Made by a program: the position numbers and the translations under genes. Shown here piece by piece: positions 33,818 through 46,111 of a stretch of DNA of 64,000 nucleotides. The first letter of the stretch is position 1. Every line of letters begins with the position of its first letter. Source of the DNA: a virus (lineage: Duplodnaviria; Heunggongvirae; Uroviricota; Caudoviricetes); IMG/VR virus record IMGVR_UViG_3300047552_001889, positions 64,001-128,000 of that record. The stretch is one strand, 5' to 3'. The notes beneath the pieces were generated by a model. The model worked only from the letters and a program-made list of their open reading frames with translations, made no database searches and was not told where the DNA came from.

Positions 33818-34408
33818 ATGAATTTCACAGTAATTCCAGACGAACAAACTCCTAATACACCTCAGATAGAGGATGTTTCTAAATTTATAGAGGAGAATAA
33901 GGAAAAGATTGAGGCGTTTAAGGAGTATGCTATTTCTCGTAGAGATGGCATCGGCCTTGCAGCAAACCAGTGCGCACTTGATGGAGAACGATTCAACTTG
34001 AGAATGGTCGCTGTCAAGAATGCAGATGGTGCAGACAGAGACTGCAGAATTGCAATTGACCCAAAGATTACAAGGCTCTACGGAATTAAGCTACAGAAGT
34101 TCGAGGGATGCCTCACTTGGAAGTCGGTTCCAGGGCTCACTGTTGTTGCTGATAGATACTTCTATGTTGATGTTGAGTTCTATACTCCAGATGGAAAATT
34201 CCATAAGGAAACTCACAAGGGGTTCCAGGCACAGGTTTGGCAACATGAGGTAAACCACATCAATGGCTATGAAGAAGTTATTATGAACTTCTCTGAACTT
34301 CCATATAGAAGTGAACTTGGGCGAAATGACGATTGCCCTTGCGGTAGTGGTAAGAAGCTTAAGAAGTGCTGTCTGAATGATTATTTAAGTTGGAAAAGTA
34401 TTTGTTAA
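33818..34408 (+). CDS. def: peptide deformylase with C-terminal SEC-C motif
   Basis: GIGLAANQ, EGCL, QHEVNH; GRNDDCPCGSGKKLKKCC. Confidence 0.9.
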   Translation: MNFTVIPDEQTPNTPQIEDVSKFIEENKEKIEAFKEYAISRRDGIGLAANQCALDGERFNLRMVAVKNADGADRDCRIAIDPKITRLYGIKLQKFEGCLTWKSVPGLTVVADRYFYVDVEFYTPDGKFHKETHKGFQAQVWQHEVNHINGYEEVIMNFSELPYRSELGRNDDCPCGSGKKLKKCCLNDYLSWKSIC

Positions 34409-40751: not shown

Positions 40752-41438
40752 ATGATTGGATTTTTCATTTATTTATTTAAAGCTTTTTTTTCTAAAAAAG
40801 AAGCGAATAACCATCCTAAAACGGTTAAGGAACAGTTAGAGGAAAAAAGACTTAAGAAAATTGAGAAGTGGAAGGAGTATGCCGAGAAATTGGTGATTGA
40901 AAGTGGTATAGACCTGGAGAATGTCCTAGTTCACAACCTTGGAAGGTGGGGGCTTGCTGGCTCAAGAGCATATTCAATAAATAACTTTTGTGTAATGTAT
41001 TCTTCAAGGGAACATGGAGAGCTTAAATTTCCTCTACCCAGTCCAGATAAGCCATTCATAATTGTCCCTGAGATTGTTGATAGCTGGACATTCAGAGCAT
41101 GGGTTCATGAAATTGGCCACTATGTAAATGGTCACTATGATGAAGTTAAAAAAAAGAGGTTCATCCAAGAATATGAGGCTGAAAAATTCTGCTTCGATAA
41201 GTGCTCTGAGTCAGGCGTTGTTGATAGTTATGATTTAATAGACATAAAGTACAGTGCTATCGCATACTTGGATTCACACATAGACAAAGCAATTGAATTA
41301 AAGGATATTAGGTACATTGAGGACATTCCTCAAGAAGTTCTTGACTTCCTATACATGGCTGACTGCATGAAGGAAGAGATAGAAAAAAAGAACTTACCAT
41401 CTAGCGAGCAACTCTCCAGAGAAATTGCCTCGTGGTAA
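40752..41438 (+). CDS. putative zinc metallopeptidase (HExxH)
   Basis: WVHEIGHYVNGH...EYEAE. Confidence 0.6.
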   Translation: MIGFFIYLFKAFFSKKEANNHPKTVKEQLEEKRLKKIEKWKEYAEKLVIESGIDLENVLVHNLGRWGLAGSRAYSINNFCVMYSSREHGELKFPLPSPDKPFIIVPEIVDSWTFRAWVHEIGHYVNGHYDEVKKKRFIQEYEAEKFCFDKCSESGVVDSYDLIDIKYSAIAYLDSHIDKAIELKDIRYIEDIPQEVLDFLYMADCMKEEIEKKNLPSSEQLSREIASW

Positions 41439-41440
41439 TG

Positions 41441-41469
41441 TGTAACATTTTTAAAATTTTATCGTAGAA
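41441..41469 (+). promoter_or_regulatory. ECF-type promoter variant TGTAAC-N16-CGTAGAA
   Basis: One mismatch; upstream of ATG 41476. Confidence 0.7.
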
Positions 41470-41475
41470 TATCTT

Positions 41476-41958
41476 ATGGAACACCTATCACATAGAACCA
41501 AAGAATTTGTATTAACTCTTTATAAAGCACCAAAGAAGTGCTTGGAGGACCTTGATGTCTTTAAATCACTTCTTGAGTCTCTAAGAGAAACTGCATCTAA
41601 GAAAACTCACTATCACAATCTGAATGAGTGGAGTGATAAGGTTTATGATTTTGTTCACAATAAGCTAAGCGAGAACGGATTCAAGAATGGAGACCCAGAG
41701 GCCAATGACAAAAACCCAGGAGCAAGATTCTGGTGGCATGTGTATGGCATTGTTGGTGGTATTCACTACTCCAAACATCTTAAGACAGATGTTGCAAATC
41801 ATCACTCAAGTGCATACGAGAGAAACGAGGCTCTTATTGCTGAGATTGAGGATGTTCTAAGTTATGCACCTTCTCAGTTTGAGCTAGGATTTTGTGAAAC
41901 ATGCCTACAGATGACCAATCATCTTGATGGGGTTTGTCAAAAATGCAAAAAACAATAA
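41476..41958 (+). CDS. hypothetical protein with C-terminal Zn ribbon
   Basis: CETC...CQKC. Confidence 0.75.
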   Translation: MEHLSHRTKEFVLTLYKAPKKCLEDLDVFKSLLESLRETASKKTHYHNLNEWSDKVYDFVHNKLSENGFKNGDPEANDKNPGARFWWHVYGIVGGIHYSKHLKTDVANHHSSAYERNEALIAEIEDVLSYAPSQFELGFCETCLQMTNHLDGVCQKCKKQ

Positions 41959-41959
41959 T

Positions 41960-42271
41960 ATGGCCAGCGTAATTCAAAAATATAAGAAACTCTATAAGAA
42001 GCTTAAGGACCTTGAGCTTCAGAAATCGTTTATTCTAATTGACTTGGACTTATATGTCACCTCAAGAAAGAATATGATTCGTTCACGTTCTGTTTTGATT
42101 AATAGAAACTATGCTTCTGAAAAGATAGTGGTTTCAAATAAGGATTTGAATGAGCTTGAGTGTATTATTAGTAAGCAAACTGCAAATATTGCTGAGTGCT
42201 ATAAGTTGCTTAAGGAAAACAAGAATCAGACTTCTGTTGTCAAAATAAAATTGTCAATGCTCGTAAAATAA
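41960..42271 (+). CDS. hypothetical protein
   Basis: Start moved to ATG 41960. Confidence 0.65.
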   Translation: MASVIQKYKKLYKKLKDLELQKSFILIDLDLYVTSRKNMIRSRSVLINRNYASEKIVVSNKDLNELECIISKQTANIAECYKLLKENKNQTSVVKIKLSMLVK

Positions 42272-42276
42272 AAGCT

Positions 42277-42513
42277 ATGTCAGAGTGGAAAAGCACAAAC
42301 TATCACGGGCATGTTCAGTCCGATGATTCTATAAAATTAGAAAACGGTAAGTGGTATGAAATAGGGTTCCAGCTTCAATTCCCGTCTGATAAAAATTTTG
42401 GACATCAAGGAATTTTGATGTACAATGATGGATTCTTTGACGAGAATGGTTATCACTTGAAGCCATTTCCAACTCACGCAAGAGAGATAGTGTTGACAGA
42501 GCCAGTGATTTAA
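42277..42513 (+). CDS. hypothetical protein
   Basis: Packed ORF. Confidence 0.65.
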   Translation: MSEWKSTNYHGHVQSDDSIKLENGKWYEIGFQLQFPSDKNFGHQGILMYNDGFFDENGYHLKPFPTHAREIVLTEPVI

Positions 42514-42514
42514 T

Positions 42515-42712
42515 ATGACAACTAGCGAGGATAATAGCACCAAGACTGTTGAGCTCCAGATAATGTATTTTTTAATTGAAGAATTGAAAATCACCAGTGA
42601 TGAAGTGTCTAAGATGACACTATCTGAAAGAATGAGCACAATAGAGAGGCGAGATGTCTCTAAGTGGAATGAATTTAGGAAAGGACTCAGACAGTCTGGG
42701 TACATAATTTAA
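42515..42712 (+). CDS. hypothetical protein
   Basis: Packed ORF. Confidence 0.6.
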   Translation: MTTSEDNSTKTVELQIMYFLIEELKITSDEVSKMTLSERMSTIERRDVSKWNEFRKGLRQSGYII

Positions 42713-42718
42713 ACAAAG

Positions 42719-42799
42719 ATGCATAAACAGGAAGAAATAATCAGCAAATTAGGAATCGAGGAGGAGATTGTTTGTATCTATCCATCTAGTCTCCAGTAA
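42719..42799 (+). pseudogene. truncated 5' remnant of a nucleotidyltransferase allele
   Basis: MHKQEEIISKLGIEEEIVCIYP aligns to MKHTAEHIIKELGIDEEIIAIYK (43817); similarity ends near 42785 at the endonuclease 3' end. Confidence 0.75.
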
Positions 42800-43740
42800 A
42801 AACCTTTATATTTACTGTTGTTTTTTATAGCTCTTGTGATGGGTCCAGTATTATTATAACCAAGTGAAACTTTTATTTCTTTAACATCATTCCAGATTTT
42901 TAAACAATCTCCGTTAGAATCTATTTGCTTGATATTTGTGTATTTATTTGTTTTGGGAATCCAGTCGCCAACTTCTTGTATTTTATTAATAACCTCTGAA
43001 TTAGATAAATATTCATAACTAAAATAAAAACCTTTAGATTGTTTACAGCTTCCAGAAAGAACAAATCGTATAGACACAGGCTCAATATTTAATTCAGAAG
43101 CACAGCCTCTAATACTATCCCATTCTTTTATTAGATTGCCTTTTAAGTCATATTGATATACAGTTTTTTTAGTATAATCAGAAACAGACCGTCCATTTAT
43201 ATTATTTTCTTTAAATATTTTAGTTATTACACCTCTGCTGATGTTTAATTCTTTACTTATCTCTCTAGTAGTTTTATTAAGTCTATAAAGCTGTATAACA
43301 TTTGATGCCAAAGAATCTCTTAATTTTTTATACTTATCAATTATTTTTTTCTTTTGTTTTTCTGATTGTTTAAATCCAAGATTGCTATCAGCAATCGGCC
43401 TACCATTATATCCTTTGTTAAATGAATCAAAATAATTAATATAATATTGTTCTTTCAATATGCACTCTTCTGGCATACACTCCTCAACAATTTCAAATGA
43501 TAACTTATCTTTCCCATATTTATTAAAAGCGTTTTGTAATGCTGGAGAATGGTGTTTATTATTTTTTAGCAAATAAATATGTTTCCTCCATCTATTATAA
43601 AATCCATTGCCACTTTTTATTTTTGAAGAGTTTGAAGATGCACTTCCAACATATACTTTTTTAGAGCCATCAAATCCTATTTTGTAAATCCCTGTTGTTG
43701 ATGGAAATATTGTAAATTCGTTTATTCTATATCTTTTCAT
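42778..43740 (-). mobile_element. free-standing GIY-YIG homing endonuclease with NUMOD1-like repeats
   Basis: TGIYKI...VYVGS...RW..H...L; VYQYDLKGNLIKEWDSI repeats; only complete - strand gene, very AT-rich. Confidence 0.9.
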
Positions 43741-43816
43741 ACTTTGATTTTATATAAATAGAAAATAAAATCCAAAAGGGTAGGTTGCTATTATTTTTTT
43801 ATATAAATTTGTAAAC

Positions 43817-44440
43817 ATGAAACACACTGCAGAACATATTATTAAAGAATTGGGTATTGATGAAGAAATAATAGCCATTTACAAATATGGGAGTCAAGTC
43901 TATGGAACAGCCTCCAAGTATTCTGACCATGACTACATCCTTGTAGCCAAGAACTCCATGCTTAACAGCGGAGCATTCAAGAACAATGCTGTATCCAGCT
44001 TAGACTATTCAATTCAAGGAACTCTATACTCAAGAGGCGGATTCCAGGATGCAATCAACAACTACAGCATGCCAGCTATGGAATGCCTATCTCTTGCTCA
44101 GGAAGATATTATCCTCAGAAAGTGGCCATTCAAAATACAGAAGTGGGATAATAAGGAGATGATTGATAAGGTCATCCAGCAAGCCTCAGCCTCAAGGCAC
44201 ATTGCTGATAAGCAGGCTAAGACCTCTGATGGTGAATTCAAGGATAGAGCTAAGCGTGGAATGTTCCATGCCCTCAGAATCCTTATGTTTGGGTTGCAGC
44301 TAAAAGAGTATCAGAAGATTGTTGACTTCTCTGCAGCAAATGAGCTTCACTCTAAGATTATGTCAATAGACGATGAAGACTTCGATACAAGAAACTGGTA
44401 TGAACTTTTTGACGAACTTGTAAATAAACTTAAGGGATAA
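43817..44440 (+). CDS. Pol-beta superfamily nucleotidyltransferase
   Basis: YGSQVYGT...SDHD motif. Confidence 0.85.
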   Translation: MKHTAEHIIKELGIDEEIIAIYKYGSQVYGTASKYSDHDYILVAKNSMLNSGAFKNNAVSSLDYSIQGTLYSRGGFQDAINNYSMPAMECLSLAQEDIILRKWPFKIQKWDNKEMIDKVIQQASASRHIADKQAKTSDGEFKDRAKRGMFHALRILMFGLQLKEYQKIVDFSAANELHSKIMSIDDEDFDTRNWYELFDELVNKLKG

Positions 44441-44472
44441 TTTGTTTCTTTATAAAATTATAATTAAATTTG
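44441..44472 (+). promoter_or_regulatory. Bacteroidota sigmaA-type promoter TTTG-N20-TAAATTTG
   Basis: Consensus match upstream of ATG 44480. Confidence 0.7.
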
Positions 44473-44479
44473 CTCCACT

Positions 44480-44899
44480 ATGACAGGTATTGGAGCATTT
44501 TTTTTGATTGTTATTGTAGCTTTGACGGTTAGTCAGATTTTTATAACCAGAGGCTACTTAAGGTATAGAAAGTTATACGCAGAATATAACTACCTATTAA
44601 ACGATTCTGCTGAAAAGGAGAATAAGATACAGGACCTAGTTGATTCTGGATTCTTTGACTCAGCTATATTCAATGTTGATAAGTTCAACGAATGGTTCAA
44701 AAATAATAAGGATAAGAGCATATACGCCCATGCTGGAATCTATCTAAGAACTGACAAGCTCTCCAGAGTTCATATTGATGATTACATTAGTGTTATCACG
44801 AATGGGGTTATATCTGGAAAAGACTTTGAAGAGCTTAAGATATTCAAGTTTGAGGACAAGATAAGAAAAAACTGGATTAAGCAATTACATTCTAAATAA
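44480..44899 (+). CDS. membrane-anchored hypothetical protein
   Basis: N-terminal TM. Confidence 0.75.
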   Translation: MTGIGAFFLIVIVALTVSQIFITRGYLRYRKLYAEYNYLLNDSAEKENKIQDLVDSGFFDSAIFNVDKFNEWFKNNKDKSIYAHAGIYLRTDKLSRVHIDDYISVITNGVISGKDFEELKIFKFEDKIRKNWIKQLHSK

Positions 44900-44915
44900 A
44901 CAAAAATAGAGATAA

Positions 44916-45809
44916 ATGGAGACAAAAGAGAAACACCCACTGGTATTAGGTCCATCTAAGACTGAGAGTGGTTACACAGTATTTAAAAACGTGGACGAAG
45001 AGCTTGTAAGTAAAATAAAAGCATTAAATGTGCCTTCAGAAACATGGATTGAAAGCAACTGGTTATCTGGGGCTAAGGGTGTCTGCAGAATTGATAAAAA
45101 ATTGAATGATAATCAGTTCTTATGTGTTGATGAGCATGGTCATTATTTTGTAAAAGATGCCAACTCATTCGAAGATACAAATAGAAATAATCTTCTAAAT
45201 AAAATAAACAATGAGTTTAGTGTAGCTGACTATCTGAATGAGAACATGAAACTTTTTACTCATTCTGGATATGCACACATAAAATTCTTATCTTCAAAAA
45301 CAGATGAGTCTTATGACGCTCTTGGAAGGGTTTCAAAAACAGAAATTGGATATGAGCTAGATACTTACGATGGTATTACTCTAAAAGAATTATCTGGAAA
45401 ATGGTGCTCTATTATGTTCTGTTTCTTTAATGAAGAAGGAAATATTGAAAACAGAGATTACAACATAGACTTTAAGGATTATTTTGAAAACAAGCCAAAA
45501 ACAAGAGAAGACTTAATAAATGGAATTTCAAGTTTAATTCCTGATGTTGAATATAAGCATGCTGGTAACAAATGGTTCTCAAATAGTTTTGCATTTGTAT
45601 TAGATGAAAGTGGTGATGAAGAAGATGACGAAGATGATAAAGAAGATGATGAAATAATTATATTTCGTCTTAACAAACTTCCTCACAAGAGTGGTGATAA
45701 CTATGGAGATAGATATTATAAGGCAAGAGTTCCATTGAAATTCACAGAAGTAAAAAGAGATAGCATCCTTGAAAGAATTATTCCACTTATTAACAAGCTA
45801 GAAATATAA
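44916..45809 (+). CDS. hypothetical protein with acidic tract
   Basis: DESGDEEDDEDDKEDDE. Confidence 0.8.
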   Translation: METKEKHPLVLGPSKTESGYTVFKNVDEELVSKIKALNVPSETWIESNWLSGAKGVCRIDKKLNDNQFLCVDEHGHYFVKDANSFEDTNRNNLLNKINNEFSVADYLNENMKLFTHSGYAHIKFLSSKTDESYDALGRVSKTEIGYELDTYDGITLKELSGKWCSIMFCFFNEEGNIENRDYNIDFKDYFENKPKTREDLINGISSLIPDVEYKHAGNKWFSNSFAFVLDESGDEEDDEDDKEDDEIIIFRLNKLPHKSGDNYGDRYYKARVPLKFTEVKRDSILERIIPLINKLEI

Positions 45810-46111
45810 TGGAAGTATTGAAGACTTTTGTATTCTCCAATGAAGAATATAAGGACACAATTCTAAAAAAGGTAATTTGTAACTATGATTTTGAAAAGCA
45901 GGAATACACAAGAGACAGTGTTCCATACAGCGAAAACGAATGGCCTCTGTTCCACAAAATTATAGTTTACGTTGGAGAAAATAGAATAAGAATCGAGAGA
46001 CCATATTCCAAGACTGGAAACAAGATGGGTTCTACCATTTATCCATCAACATTAATAGATGTTCCAGAAATTGCGATGGATGAGGTTAAGGATTTTCTAA
46101 ATTTAAAATAA
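45809..46111 (+). CDS. hypothetical protein
   Basis: Packed ORF. Confidence 0.75.
   Translation: MEVLKTFVFSNEEYKDTILKKVICNYDFEKQEYTRDSVPYSENEWPLFHKIIVYVGENRIRIERPYSKTGNKMGSTIYPSTLIDVPEIAMDEVKDFLNLK

Follow-up and report, generated by a model that had tools for sequence, protein, structure and literature searches.

A predicted GIY-YIG homing endonuclease gene linked to a replacement gene start within a phage nucleotidyltransferase gene

To our knowledge, homing endonucleases are thought to persist inside genes only by way of self-splicing introns or inteins, or through two-part splits that still work. I-TevI, for example, is an intron-encoded enzyme that targets td. Free-standing enzymes of T4, namely the GIY-YIG Seg and the HNH Mob proteins, perform intronless homing with co-conversion of flanking markers (PMC2988022), and passages of the same review treat one-sided homing with illegitimate junctions as established for T4 (Parker et al. 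1999). Passages on Aeh1 in two accounts present its nrdA gene, split by mobE, as a case of genes-in-pieces (PMC2988022, PMC10448857). In fungal mitochondria, mobile ORFs (mORFs) replace gene ends, as in Allomyces macrogynus atp6 and Glomus atp6, atp9, cox2 and nad3; for Glomus atp6, the native remnant matches close relatives at 91% and the inserted piece at 63.5% (PMC3630166).

Here we describe a locus from a large, uncultured phage with a 141-kb genome, in which a homing endonuclease gene (HEG) lies within the 5' part of a nucleotidyltransferase (NTase) gene (Table 1). Coordinates refer to the window, the whole 64,000-nucleotide stretch of DNA that was analysed. Megablast of 41400-45900 found no match among GenBank phages, and an Rfam scan of 42000-45000 found no group I/II intron or other RNA. 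Relatives of the HEG and the NTase were recovered by alignment-based scans of viral contigs; single-protein scans of viral contigs yielded no HEG relative and one distant NTase locus only. Homologues of the 65-aa upstream gene (62 aa in locus L007, 75 aa in L010 and 61 aa in L214, the last with a BLASTP E=7e-10) lie directly 5' of a remnant or of the NTase itself. The remnant ORF of the window has a start codon and begins 6 nt past the end of the 65-aa gene.

Table 1. Features of the locus in window coordinates
Feature	Position	Strand	Basis or remark
65-aa gene, C-terminus ...GYII	42515..42712	+	Resident left neighbour of the NTase gene
Remnant ORF, 26 codons	42719..42799	+	22 NTase-homologous codons (42719-42784), then 4 junction-derived codons and stop
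Left junction, remnant / HEG 3' end	42784..42786		Read from sequence and from HEG C-termini of relatives
HEG, GIY-YIG, 320 aa, free-standing, apparently intact	42778..43740	-	Pfam, I-TevI profile, PHROG
Spacer, 76-nt	43741..43816		Travels with the HEG
Replacement NTase 5' end, codons 1-27 (through YGSQ)	43817..43897	+	Boundary by analogy with L005 versus L011/L007
NTase gene, complete, 207 aa, Pol-beta-type motif YGS...SDHDY	43817..44440	+	Full-length alignment to relatives

The gene at 43817 has 262 relatives at E<=1e-5, in which G25, S26, D37 and D39 are invariant, and the motif YGS-x10-DHD is invariant in 40 NTase sequences. It matches the PHROG 388 nucleotidyltransferase family (E=3e-9), while the Pfam models Polbeta (19 bits) and NTP_transf_2 (17.4 bits) both score under their cut-offs and a profile search of the PDB gives a weak match (E=0.002). 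The gene is complete and its product a predicted functional nucleotidyltransferase. An earlier note on this DNA, made from the sequence, had called the NTase "split", a description that we drop: the 207-aa gene aligns over its full length with the 262 relatives, and the remnant is redundant. The genes-in-pieces arrangement, in which both fragments are needed, does not apply here, as the remnant duplicates residues 1-23 and the 207-aa gene matches relatives of 201-210 aa from end to end.

The antisense gene carries separate C-terminal DNA-binding modules, scoring 30.4 bits for NUMOD1 (cut-off 22.8) and 29.3 for I-HmuI_NUMOD-like (cut-off 27). Its score for the Pfam GIY-YIG domain (PF01541) is 17.2 bits, under the 22.6 cut-off; a profile of its family matches the I-TevI catalytic domain (1MK0) with E=2.6e-13 over ~100 aligned residues. 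G17-I-Y19, Y30-V-G32, R50, H54, E97 and N112, which make up the GIY-YIG catalytic signature, are invariant in 29 relatives, all I-TevI catalytic residues are kept, and PHROG homing-endonuclease families are matched as well. The HEG is free-standing, being an ORF of its own, antisense to its target and with no intron match, and the NTase ORF is complete without splicing. Moreover, all full-length HEG relatives found (43-80% identity, ~12 lineages) flank a predicted Pol-beta NTase. The gene is predicted to encode an I-TevI-like GIY-YIG homing endonuclease. Its last two codons and stop are the antisense strand of the remnant (Gly codon 42781-42783, TAG stop 42778-42780), and its product ends in ...YWRLDG versus mostly ...YW-x-L or ...YW-x-LE in relatives, the original HEG stop being absent at the window junction.

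The similarity between the 26-codon ORF and the NTase N-terminus, claimed earlier as 12 of about 22 residues breaking off before YGS, holds up: there are 12 identities to the first 23 residues of the 43817 NTase with one 1-residue gap, and homology stops after the Pro codon at 42782-42784, one codon short of the motif. The antisense GIY-YIG gene (42778-43740) lies between the two and ends inside the remnant, again as described. The earlier note had made its claim depend on significance in a profile alignment. We searched the 141-kb genome, as its full set of 8,721 six-frame fragments, with a 23-column family N-terminal profile: the remnant scored 46.4 bits (E=1.1e-12), beside 46.3 for the true N-terminus and 9.1 for the next match. 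With the 23 residues of the window NTase as sole query, the remnant is found at E=1.6e-4. It shares 19/22 residues with the N-terminus of an intact relative (P0017), and its nucleotide identity is 79-82% to the HEG-free alleles L004 and L012 and 61% to the functional 5' end of the window. The 14 nucleotide differences from L004 leave 8 codons with synonymous changes only and 3 with a changed residue, suggesting that the stub was still a working coding sequence when it diverged, rather than decaying DNA. That the ORF is a chance resemblance or a separate small gene with no relation to the NTase might be suspected from its shortness, its own start codon and its position 6 nt past the upstream gene. 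This is refuted by the profile searches, in which the genome held no other match, and we give it practically no credence: like stubs stand at the corresponding position in five further loci, and homology ends exactly where HEG sequence begins. Judged by homology, the ORF is a true 5' fragment of an NTase gene.

This HEG occurs at only 4 of ~110 NTase loci, namely the window, L009, L010/L013 and L011. In all four, a remnant lies just past the HEG 3' end (22, 26, 17 and 16 codons, respectively), and each resembles a HEG-free allele more than it does the HEG-linked 5' end; the L010 remnant is identical over 17/17 residues to the intact P0019/P0020. Within the same NTase clade there are also one HEG-deleted lineage (L007/L008) and many HEG-free loci, which apart from L007/L008 have no remnant. 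As the earlier note had predicted, HEG-free relatives carry an uninterrupted resident-type allele. For example, the L004 N-terminus equals the remnant at 19/22 residues and ends in IYPYGS, and in L214 an MHK-type NTase starts one base past the homologue of the window's 65-aa upstream gene. The contrast drawn between MKHT and MHKQ starts needs amending: the start itself is not diagnostic, since some HEG-free alleles begin with MKHT, and it is over codons 5-27 that the allele classes differ.

The state named in advance as damaging, a HEG-free locus with an MKHT-type allele, does exist in L007/L008. However, L007 equals L011 minus 971 bp between two 10-bp copies of TAAAACCCAA, and it keeps the spacer, the remnant (69/69 nt identical to L011) and the last 15 nt of the HEG. 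The retained remnant and HEG end point to secondary loss of the HEG and not to a refutation. L206/L207, from a distant lineage, carry a 26-codon remnant of their own (E=2.7e-9), and their promoter region is duplicated. Per-locus searches of other distant HEG-NTase pairs (L126-L135, L208, L211) found no remnant, so remnant formation is not obligatory; the family N-terminal profile had no match in the loci of distant HEG relatives because the NTases there are too diverged. A stretch beside the L211 HEG looked like a tRNA, but ARAGORN did not confirm it.

The earlier claim of an imported 5' end and upstream region can be seen directly in a sister lineage. Between HEG-free L005 and HEG-bearing L011 (or its derivative L007), nt 14-81 of the NTase gene hold 25/68 differences (37%), whereas nt 82-610 hold 8 (1.5%). 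The L011 remnant is identical to the L005 5' end at 44/48 nt (92%) and to its own functional 5' end at 69%. This mosaic, together with the remnant match, suggests that the HEG, the 76-nt spacer and ~27 foreign codons entered together. Codons 1-20 of the window NTase are likewise 82% identical to HEG-linked L011 and 70% to HEG-free L005, and past codon ~25 L005 and L011 are equally similar to it. A near-identical uninvaded sibling of the window's NTase was not found among the relatives (the best remnant matches are 79-82% at the nucleotide level), so the before/after comparison comes from the sister lineage L005/L011/L007. At the level of sequence, these comparisons show a foreign origin for the predicted functional 5' end and for the spacer, both of which accompany the HEG. 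A candidate resistance change lies just before YGS, where remnants have P and HEG-linked alleles K, K, R or S; a non-P residue is present in 4/4 HEG-linked versus 17/72 HEG-free alleles (Fisher p=0.005, kinship ignored). As a marker of HEG-linked alleles it was rejected, being enriched and not exclusive: HEG-free L005, L212 and L214 have S or K.

The spacer has a conserved core at 43766-43790 and, separated from the NTase ATG by 5 nt, an TAAATTTG element (43804-43811). Its nucleotide identity is 80-84% among the four HEG-bearing loci, TAnnTTTG stands just 5' of the ATG in all five spacers, and the core motif is confined, among 205 loci, to those that bear the HEG or have deleted it; a motif scan of viral contigs gave no further loci. 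A sigma-70 promoter and terminator scan of 42400-44600 gave nothing above shuffles, and of the Bacteroidota-type pattern TTTG-N17-21-TAnnTTTG the spacer holds the proximal TAnnTTTG element only, the full pattern being absent. We infer that the spacer probably contains divergent promoters.

Taken together, we consider it very probable that a HEG specialised on one phage NTase family invaded the 5' part of a resident NTase gene as a cassette, leaving a stub. Besides the antisense HEG, the cassette would comprise the 76-nt spacer and, from a foreign NTase allele, the first ~27 codons. The enzyme, which presumably cleaves near the YGS codons, would cut HEG-free alleles at or just past these catalytic codons, and the new allele may be resistant to it. 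On the right, homologous recombination with the donor NTase gene would leave a very short conversion tract, ending just past YGSQ; the left end would be resected and joined past the HEG 3' end, either illegitimately or via an existing remnant. The first 22 resident codons would thereby be stranded immediately past the 65-aa gene as a dead stub, with the HEG frame ending inside it, and the NTase would be expressed from the imported start, probably via a spacer promoter because the antisense HEG severs it from the upstream operon.

A more tentative idea, to which we give less than even weight, is that the stub serves as the working left homology arm of a self-contained in-ORF element made up of remnant, HEG, spacer and replacement 5' end. 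If so, the NTase body would be the right arm, the cassette could home into any NTase-bearing genome whatever lies upstream, and the fresh-looking remnant would be renewed at each homing. This would amount to a third endonuclease lifestyle inside coding regions, besides introns and inteins, which a single HEG family would have maintained on a single NTase family in very divergent phages.

Repeated invasion has to be weighed against a single ancient event in the ancestor of the window, L009, L010 and L011, whose remnants would then be orthologous, with lengths and junctions altered by later small deletions; HEG-free relatives would have lost the cassette or swapped alleles by ordinary recombination. 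Layout and spacer are indeed alike in all four loci, the breakpoints lie <=10 codons apart, and HEG, spacer and linked 5' end could have been inherited together. Yet each remnant best matches a different HEG-free allele, and that of L010 has 17/17 residues in common with P0019/P0020. Start codon (ATG) and open frame survive in all remnants, even though the HEGs are down to 63-80% amino acid identity. L005 is 98.5% identical to L011 past nt 81 but lacks the cassette, and it is no simple deletion derivative since its codons 17-27 are resident-type. Affinities also conflict, the window HEG being nearest to L009 (83% nt) and the 3' part of its NTase to L011 (83% versus 69%). We therefore regard a single invasion as unlikely.

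Far less probable still is that a duplication or the insertion of a promoter cassette first produced the remnant, spacer and new 5' end, with the HEG arriving later as a passenger. L007/L008, which combine remnant, spacer and NTase without a HEG, look like such an intermediate, but the last 15 nt of the HEG frame, joined in L007 to the spacer at the 10-bp repeat, mark a deleted L011-type HEG, and the L007 remnant, with 16 codons against 22 in the window and 26 in L009, is too short to have been the precursor of either. At 61-69% nucleotide identity, remnant and functional 5' end are too diverged for an in-genome duplication, the remainder of the L011 gene is 98.5% identical to the uninvaded L005 allele, and the HEG family flanks NTase genes in ~12 lineages.

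Invasion by a HEG-borne cassette, our preferred reading, would make the locus a further solution in phages to persisting within a gene: because the element carries both a spare start for the gene and an upstream spacer of its own, insertion within the reading frame would cost the host nothing. Uninvaded, invaded (at least 5 different junctions) and HEG-deleted states are all present in metagenomes, so that the cycle through which a selfish gene is gained, fixed and lost can be followed as a natural time series. A further prediction of the system is a cut at the catalytic YGS codons, located to within ~20 bases. For annotation, short unannotated ORFs beside endonuclease genes may be abandoned gene ends, and the first ~27 codons of such genes may differ in history from the remainder.

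Among known systems, I-TevI (1MK0/1LN0) shares with the HEG its catalytic domain and a modular C-terminal DNA-binding region, but the HEG is free-standing and NTase-associated and has a different DNA-binding region. T4 Seg/Mob enzymes offer a likeness in the free-standing GIY-YIG and NUMOD-type enzyme adjoining its presumed target gene, in presence/absence polymorphism with co-inherited flanking sequence, and in illegitimate one-sided repair as a documented route to new sites. They are usually found between genes that are intact, flanked by homology on either side, and leave no duplicated gene fragment, whereas the present element, known from its sequence, is in-ORF and has a replacement gene start. 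Like mobE in Aeh1 nrdA, the HEG lies within a coding region whose function is not destroyed; there, however, both pieces are needed and reassemble as proteins, while the present locus has a complete downstream gene and a redundant upstream piece. By analogy, the closest counterpart is gene-end replacement by fungal mitochondrial mORFs, in which an endonuclease ORF (GIY-YIG in some) is likewise linked to a foreign terminal gene piece and the native piece is left as a remnant. The duplicated terminal piece, native remnant and foreign inserted piece recur here in a pattern seen at 4/4 remnants, close relatives match the remnant much more closely than the inserted piece (92% versus 69% in L011), and the hybrid gene stays functional, as predicted from its conserved motifs. 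The fungal mORF reports describe nothing comparable to the targeting of a single NTase family in many phage lineages. Moreover, fungal mORFs replace the 3' (C-terminal) end of an organelle gene and are often in frame with it, whereas this phage contig has a replaced 5' end and an antisense HEG, so that the cassette must supply a start codon and, presumably, a promoter.

The window derives from a 141-kb IMG/VR virus contig with an estimated completeness of 63%, and its nucleotidyltransferase (NTase) locus is laid out in the table below. The earlier note called the NTase ‘split’, which is the wrong word because the 207-aa gene is complete. Its other observation, that the short upstream ORF resembles the NTase N-terminus, stands: the two match at 12 of 22 positions with one gap, and the match breaks off before the catalytic YGS motif, at a Pro codon one codon ahead of it. 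A 23-column profile, built from the N-termini of 40 NTase family members and run on all 8,721 six-frame fragments of the contig, scored the short ORF at 46.4 bits (E=1.1e-12), the real N-terminus at 46.3 and the next match at 9 bits. Moreover, among 262 NTase relatives, the intact P0017 shares 19/22 N-terminal residues with the short ORF and then runs on into ...IYPYGS. By sequence comparison, the short ORF is thus confirmed as an NTase 5′ stub.

Layout of the NTase locus in the window
Feature	Position	Strand	Remark
65-aa gene	42515-42712	+	ORF
26-codon ORF (stub)	42719-42799	+	starts six bases past the 65-aa gene
320-aa ORF (endonuclease)	42778-43740	-	in the gap between stub and NTase
76-nt spacer	between endonuclease and NTase		same gap
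NTase gene, 207 aa	43817-44440	+	after the gap

In the 320-aa ORF, two DNA-binding modules, NUMOD1 and I-HmuI-NUMOD-like, exceed their Pfam cut-offs, and GIY-YIG gives a weak Pfam match. With a profile built from 29 relatives, the I-TevI catalytic domain (1MK0) is hit at E=2.6e-13, and the GIY and YVG motifs, together with the Arg, His, Glu and Asn aligned to I-TevI catalytic positions, are invariant among them. No intron or other RNA family was matched in the region of the locus, and these features together identify the ORF as a free-standing, apparently intact GIY-YIG homing endonuclease gene (HEG). Since the C-termini of its relatives mostly read ...YW-x-L or ...YW-x-LE, the window HEG has lost its original stop, its frame running two codons into the stub; as previously proposed, its last Gly codon and TAG stop are supplied by the antisense strand of the stub homology.

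The three closest HEG relatives (80%, 65% and 66% amino acid identity), on metagenomic contigs L009, L010 and L011, each lie divergently upstream of an NTase homologue with a spacer of 72-77 nt, and an NTase 5′ stub lies just beyond the HEG 3′ end (26, 17 and 16 codons, respectively). Across about 110 NTase loci surveyed in collections of metagenome and viral contigs, window-type HEGs were limited to these lineages and the window. The N-terminal profile found extra stubs only in these four lineages and on L007 and L008 (E 1.7e-13 to 3e-7), and the conserved spacer core is confined, among all 205 loci, to HEG-bearing loci and L007/L008.

Uninterrupted resident-type alleles, predicted in the earlier note for HEG-free relatives, do exist. 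On L004, the P0017 allele (...IYPYGS) directly follows its upstream gene, with downstream genes syntenic with the window; on L214, an MHK-type NTase starts one base past a homologue of the window 65-aa gene, the arrangement expected of the window before invasion. The NTase loci on L012, L212 and L215 are likewise uninterrupted. Furthermore, L005 carries a sibling allele of the invaded lineage with no HEG, stub or spacer. Compared with the L011/L007 NTase, it differs at 25 of 68 positions at nt 14-81 and at only 8 at nt 82-610, and the 16-codon L011/L007 stub is identical to the L005 5′ end at 44/48 positions but to the adjacent functional 5′ end at 33/48. The first 27 functional codons of the invaded loci are therefore foreign, with a right-hand recombination boundary just past the YGSQ codons, and the pile-up of differences before nt 81 bears out the claim that the HEG brought a recoded 5′ end. 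Additionally, the L011 NTase departs from the L005 and L007 genes solely over its last ~5 codons (nt 611 onward), the rest being 97-100% identical; this point marks another recombination boundary, at the gene 3′ end, with the NTase body acting as a module common to different flanks.

L007 and L008 represent a further state of the locus. Four upstream genes are syntenic with the window, and the stub, identical to that of L011 (69/69 nt), runs into the final 15 nt of the HEG frame, whose tail is joined to the spacer at a single copy of the 10-bp sequence TAAAACCCAA. This sequence occurs twice in L011, 971 bp apart, flanking the HEG. Such an arrangement is a HEG deletion between short direct repeats, which explains a replacement allele in an endonuclease-free phage. 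The invasion interpretation is supported, and it can be widened to a small set of loci that naturally show the uninvaded, the invaded and the HEG-deleted state.

All four stubs show higher nucleotide identity to some HEG-free allele than to the neighbouring functional 5′ end: 82% versus 61% in the window, 92% versus 69% in L011, 74% versus 60% in L009 and 82% versus 65% in L010. Between the window stub and L004 there are 14 base differences, with eight codons changed only synonymously and three altering the residue; the stub therefore diverged while it was still functional coding sequence, and little decay has followed its stranding. Spacer and first 27 codons are alike in all four HEG-bearing loci (72-84% to the window), and window codons 1-20 are 82% identical to L011 and 70% to L005, both being equal further on, so that the functional 5′ end of the window is of the HEG-linked class. 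As read from these alleles, HEG, spacer and ~27 foreign codons (the cassette) are co-inherited, the resident 5′ end stays behind on invasion, and the HEG can be lost again by deletion.

Several findings lean towards repeated invasion, or stub renewal by homing, rather than a single event: the junctions and the best-matching resident alleles differ among loci, all stubs are intact, the near-identical uninvaded sibling L005 exists, and HEG and NTase affinities conflict. The HEG segment of the window is 83% identical to L009 and 70% to L011, whereas NTase codons 28 to the end are 69% and 83% identical, respectively, indicating separate histories for these two parts. L011 and L007 have stub, cassette and NTase in common, yet their upstream sequences are unrelated from the stub ATG exactly. 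This would be expected if the stub served as a left homology arm, although an unrelated rearrangement is equally possible. The gene directly upstream of the L011 stub (L011:5206-6057) is homologous to window 44916-45809, downstream of the NTase (33% identity, E=5e-50), and therefore gene order around the NTase differs between close relatives.

Left junctions fall at YGS or up to 10 codons ahead of it (0-10) in all six cases, and the only right boundary mapped is at nt 81-90; from these positions we infer that the enzyme cuts HEG-free alleles near the YGS codons. The right end would be repaired by homology with a short conversion tract, whereas the left end would lose 0-33 nt to resection and be joined beyond the HEG, illegitimately or via an existing stub; illegitimate joining is documented for one-sided intron homing in T4, as summarized in a review (Parker et al. 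1999, reviewed in PMC2988022). On this model, the imported allele is predicted to resist cutting. Near YGS, the codon just ahead of the motif is the only one that differs consistently: it encodes Pro in stubs reaching it (window and L009; by alignment not L206) and in 55/72 HEG-free alleles, whereas the four HEG-linked alleles have Lys, Lys, Arg or Ser (non-Pro, Fisher p=0.005, uncorrected for relatedness). Since the HEG-free L005, L212 and L214 also have Ser or Lys here, this residue is only a candidate resistance change.

The resident NTase lies 1-6 nt after, or overlaps, its upstream neighbour (window stub, L004, L005, L214) and is probably co-transcribed with it, which an antisense HEG would interrupt. 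The spacer is more conserved than the adjoining coding parts, and TAnnTTTG stands 5-6 nt before the NTase ATG in all five spacer copies (window 43804-43811), resembling the Bacteroidota -7 promoter box. The full two-box pattern, TTTG-N17-21-TAnnTTTG, is absent from the window spacer, and a sigma-70 scan of the spacer was uninformative. Window-wide, this pattern has seven sites, every one of them on the plus (coding) strand, where 3.3 would be expected over the two strands together; the copy at 44441-44472 lies just before the gene at 44480. Together with the conserved TAnnTTTG, these sites fit Bacteroidota-type promoters with very short leaders, and so would suggest a Bacteroidota host.

Full-length HEG relatives at 43-58% identity came from ten viral contigs and another three metagenomic lineages. 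Each of them flanks a Pol-beta-type NTase, although these NTases are only 28-47% identical to that of the window. L206 and L207 have a 26-codon stub past the HEG (E=2.7e-9 within the locus), breaking two codons ahead of the YGS Tyr, as well as ~40 nt of duplicated upstream region; a per-locus search saw no stub in the other distant pairs. The HEG family has thus long tracked one gene family, with stub formation recurrent but not obligatory. In L206 (3466-3640, NTase orientation), a GC-rich, terminator-like hairpin with a T-run precedes the stub, and the ~40 nt after it are duplicated in the spacer before the functional NTase, as though the resident NTase had its own promoter, of which the cassette would carry a copy.

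The neighbourhood has further features. Genes for DUF1152, NADAR, ADP-ribosylglycohydrolase and nucleoside 2-deoxyribosyltransferase-like proteins near the NTase of distant HEG-bearing phages (L208:2215-4704; L206:695-1159) hint that the NTase is part of a nucleotide- or ADP-ribose-related module. IS605 OrfB/TnpB (Cas12f-like) genes lie directly after the NTase in the HEG-free L005 (5649-6299, minus strand) and three genes downstream in the HEG-free L212 (4488-5639) and L213 (3789-4940), and therefore a second kind of nuclease-encoding mobile element frequents this neighbourhood. Relatives encode, a few genes ahead of the NTase, a peptide deformylase with a SEC-C motif (L005:1-65; L214:746-1336); this unusual fusion also occurs at window 33818-34408, so it is conserved in the phage group.

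By every feature testable in silico, the window enzyme belongs to the GIY-YIG homing endonucleases, and its behaviour appears similar to the intronless homing of T4 Seg enzymes, although the Seg genes lie between intact genes, and no fragments of genes are left by them (PMC2988022). A genes-in-pieces arrangement is ruled out because the stub is redundant. A full-text literature search found no report of such a locus in phages, which is not proof of absence; the locus is relevant to research into selfish elements and into the mosaicism of phages. Of the systems described, the mobile ORF elements of fungal mitochondria come closest: an endonuclease ORF moves together with a foreign piece of the C-terminus of atp6, atp9, cox2 or nad3, and the native C-terminus stays behind as a remnant (PMC3630166, where the Allomyces atp6 case is covered too). 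The window locus is their mirror image in a phage, with a replaced 5′ end and an antisense HEG, and the cassette, unlike the fungal elements, must supply a start codon and upstream region.
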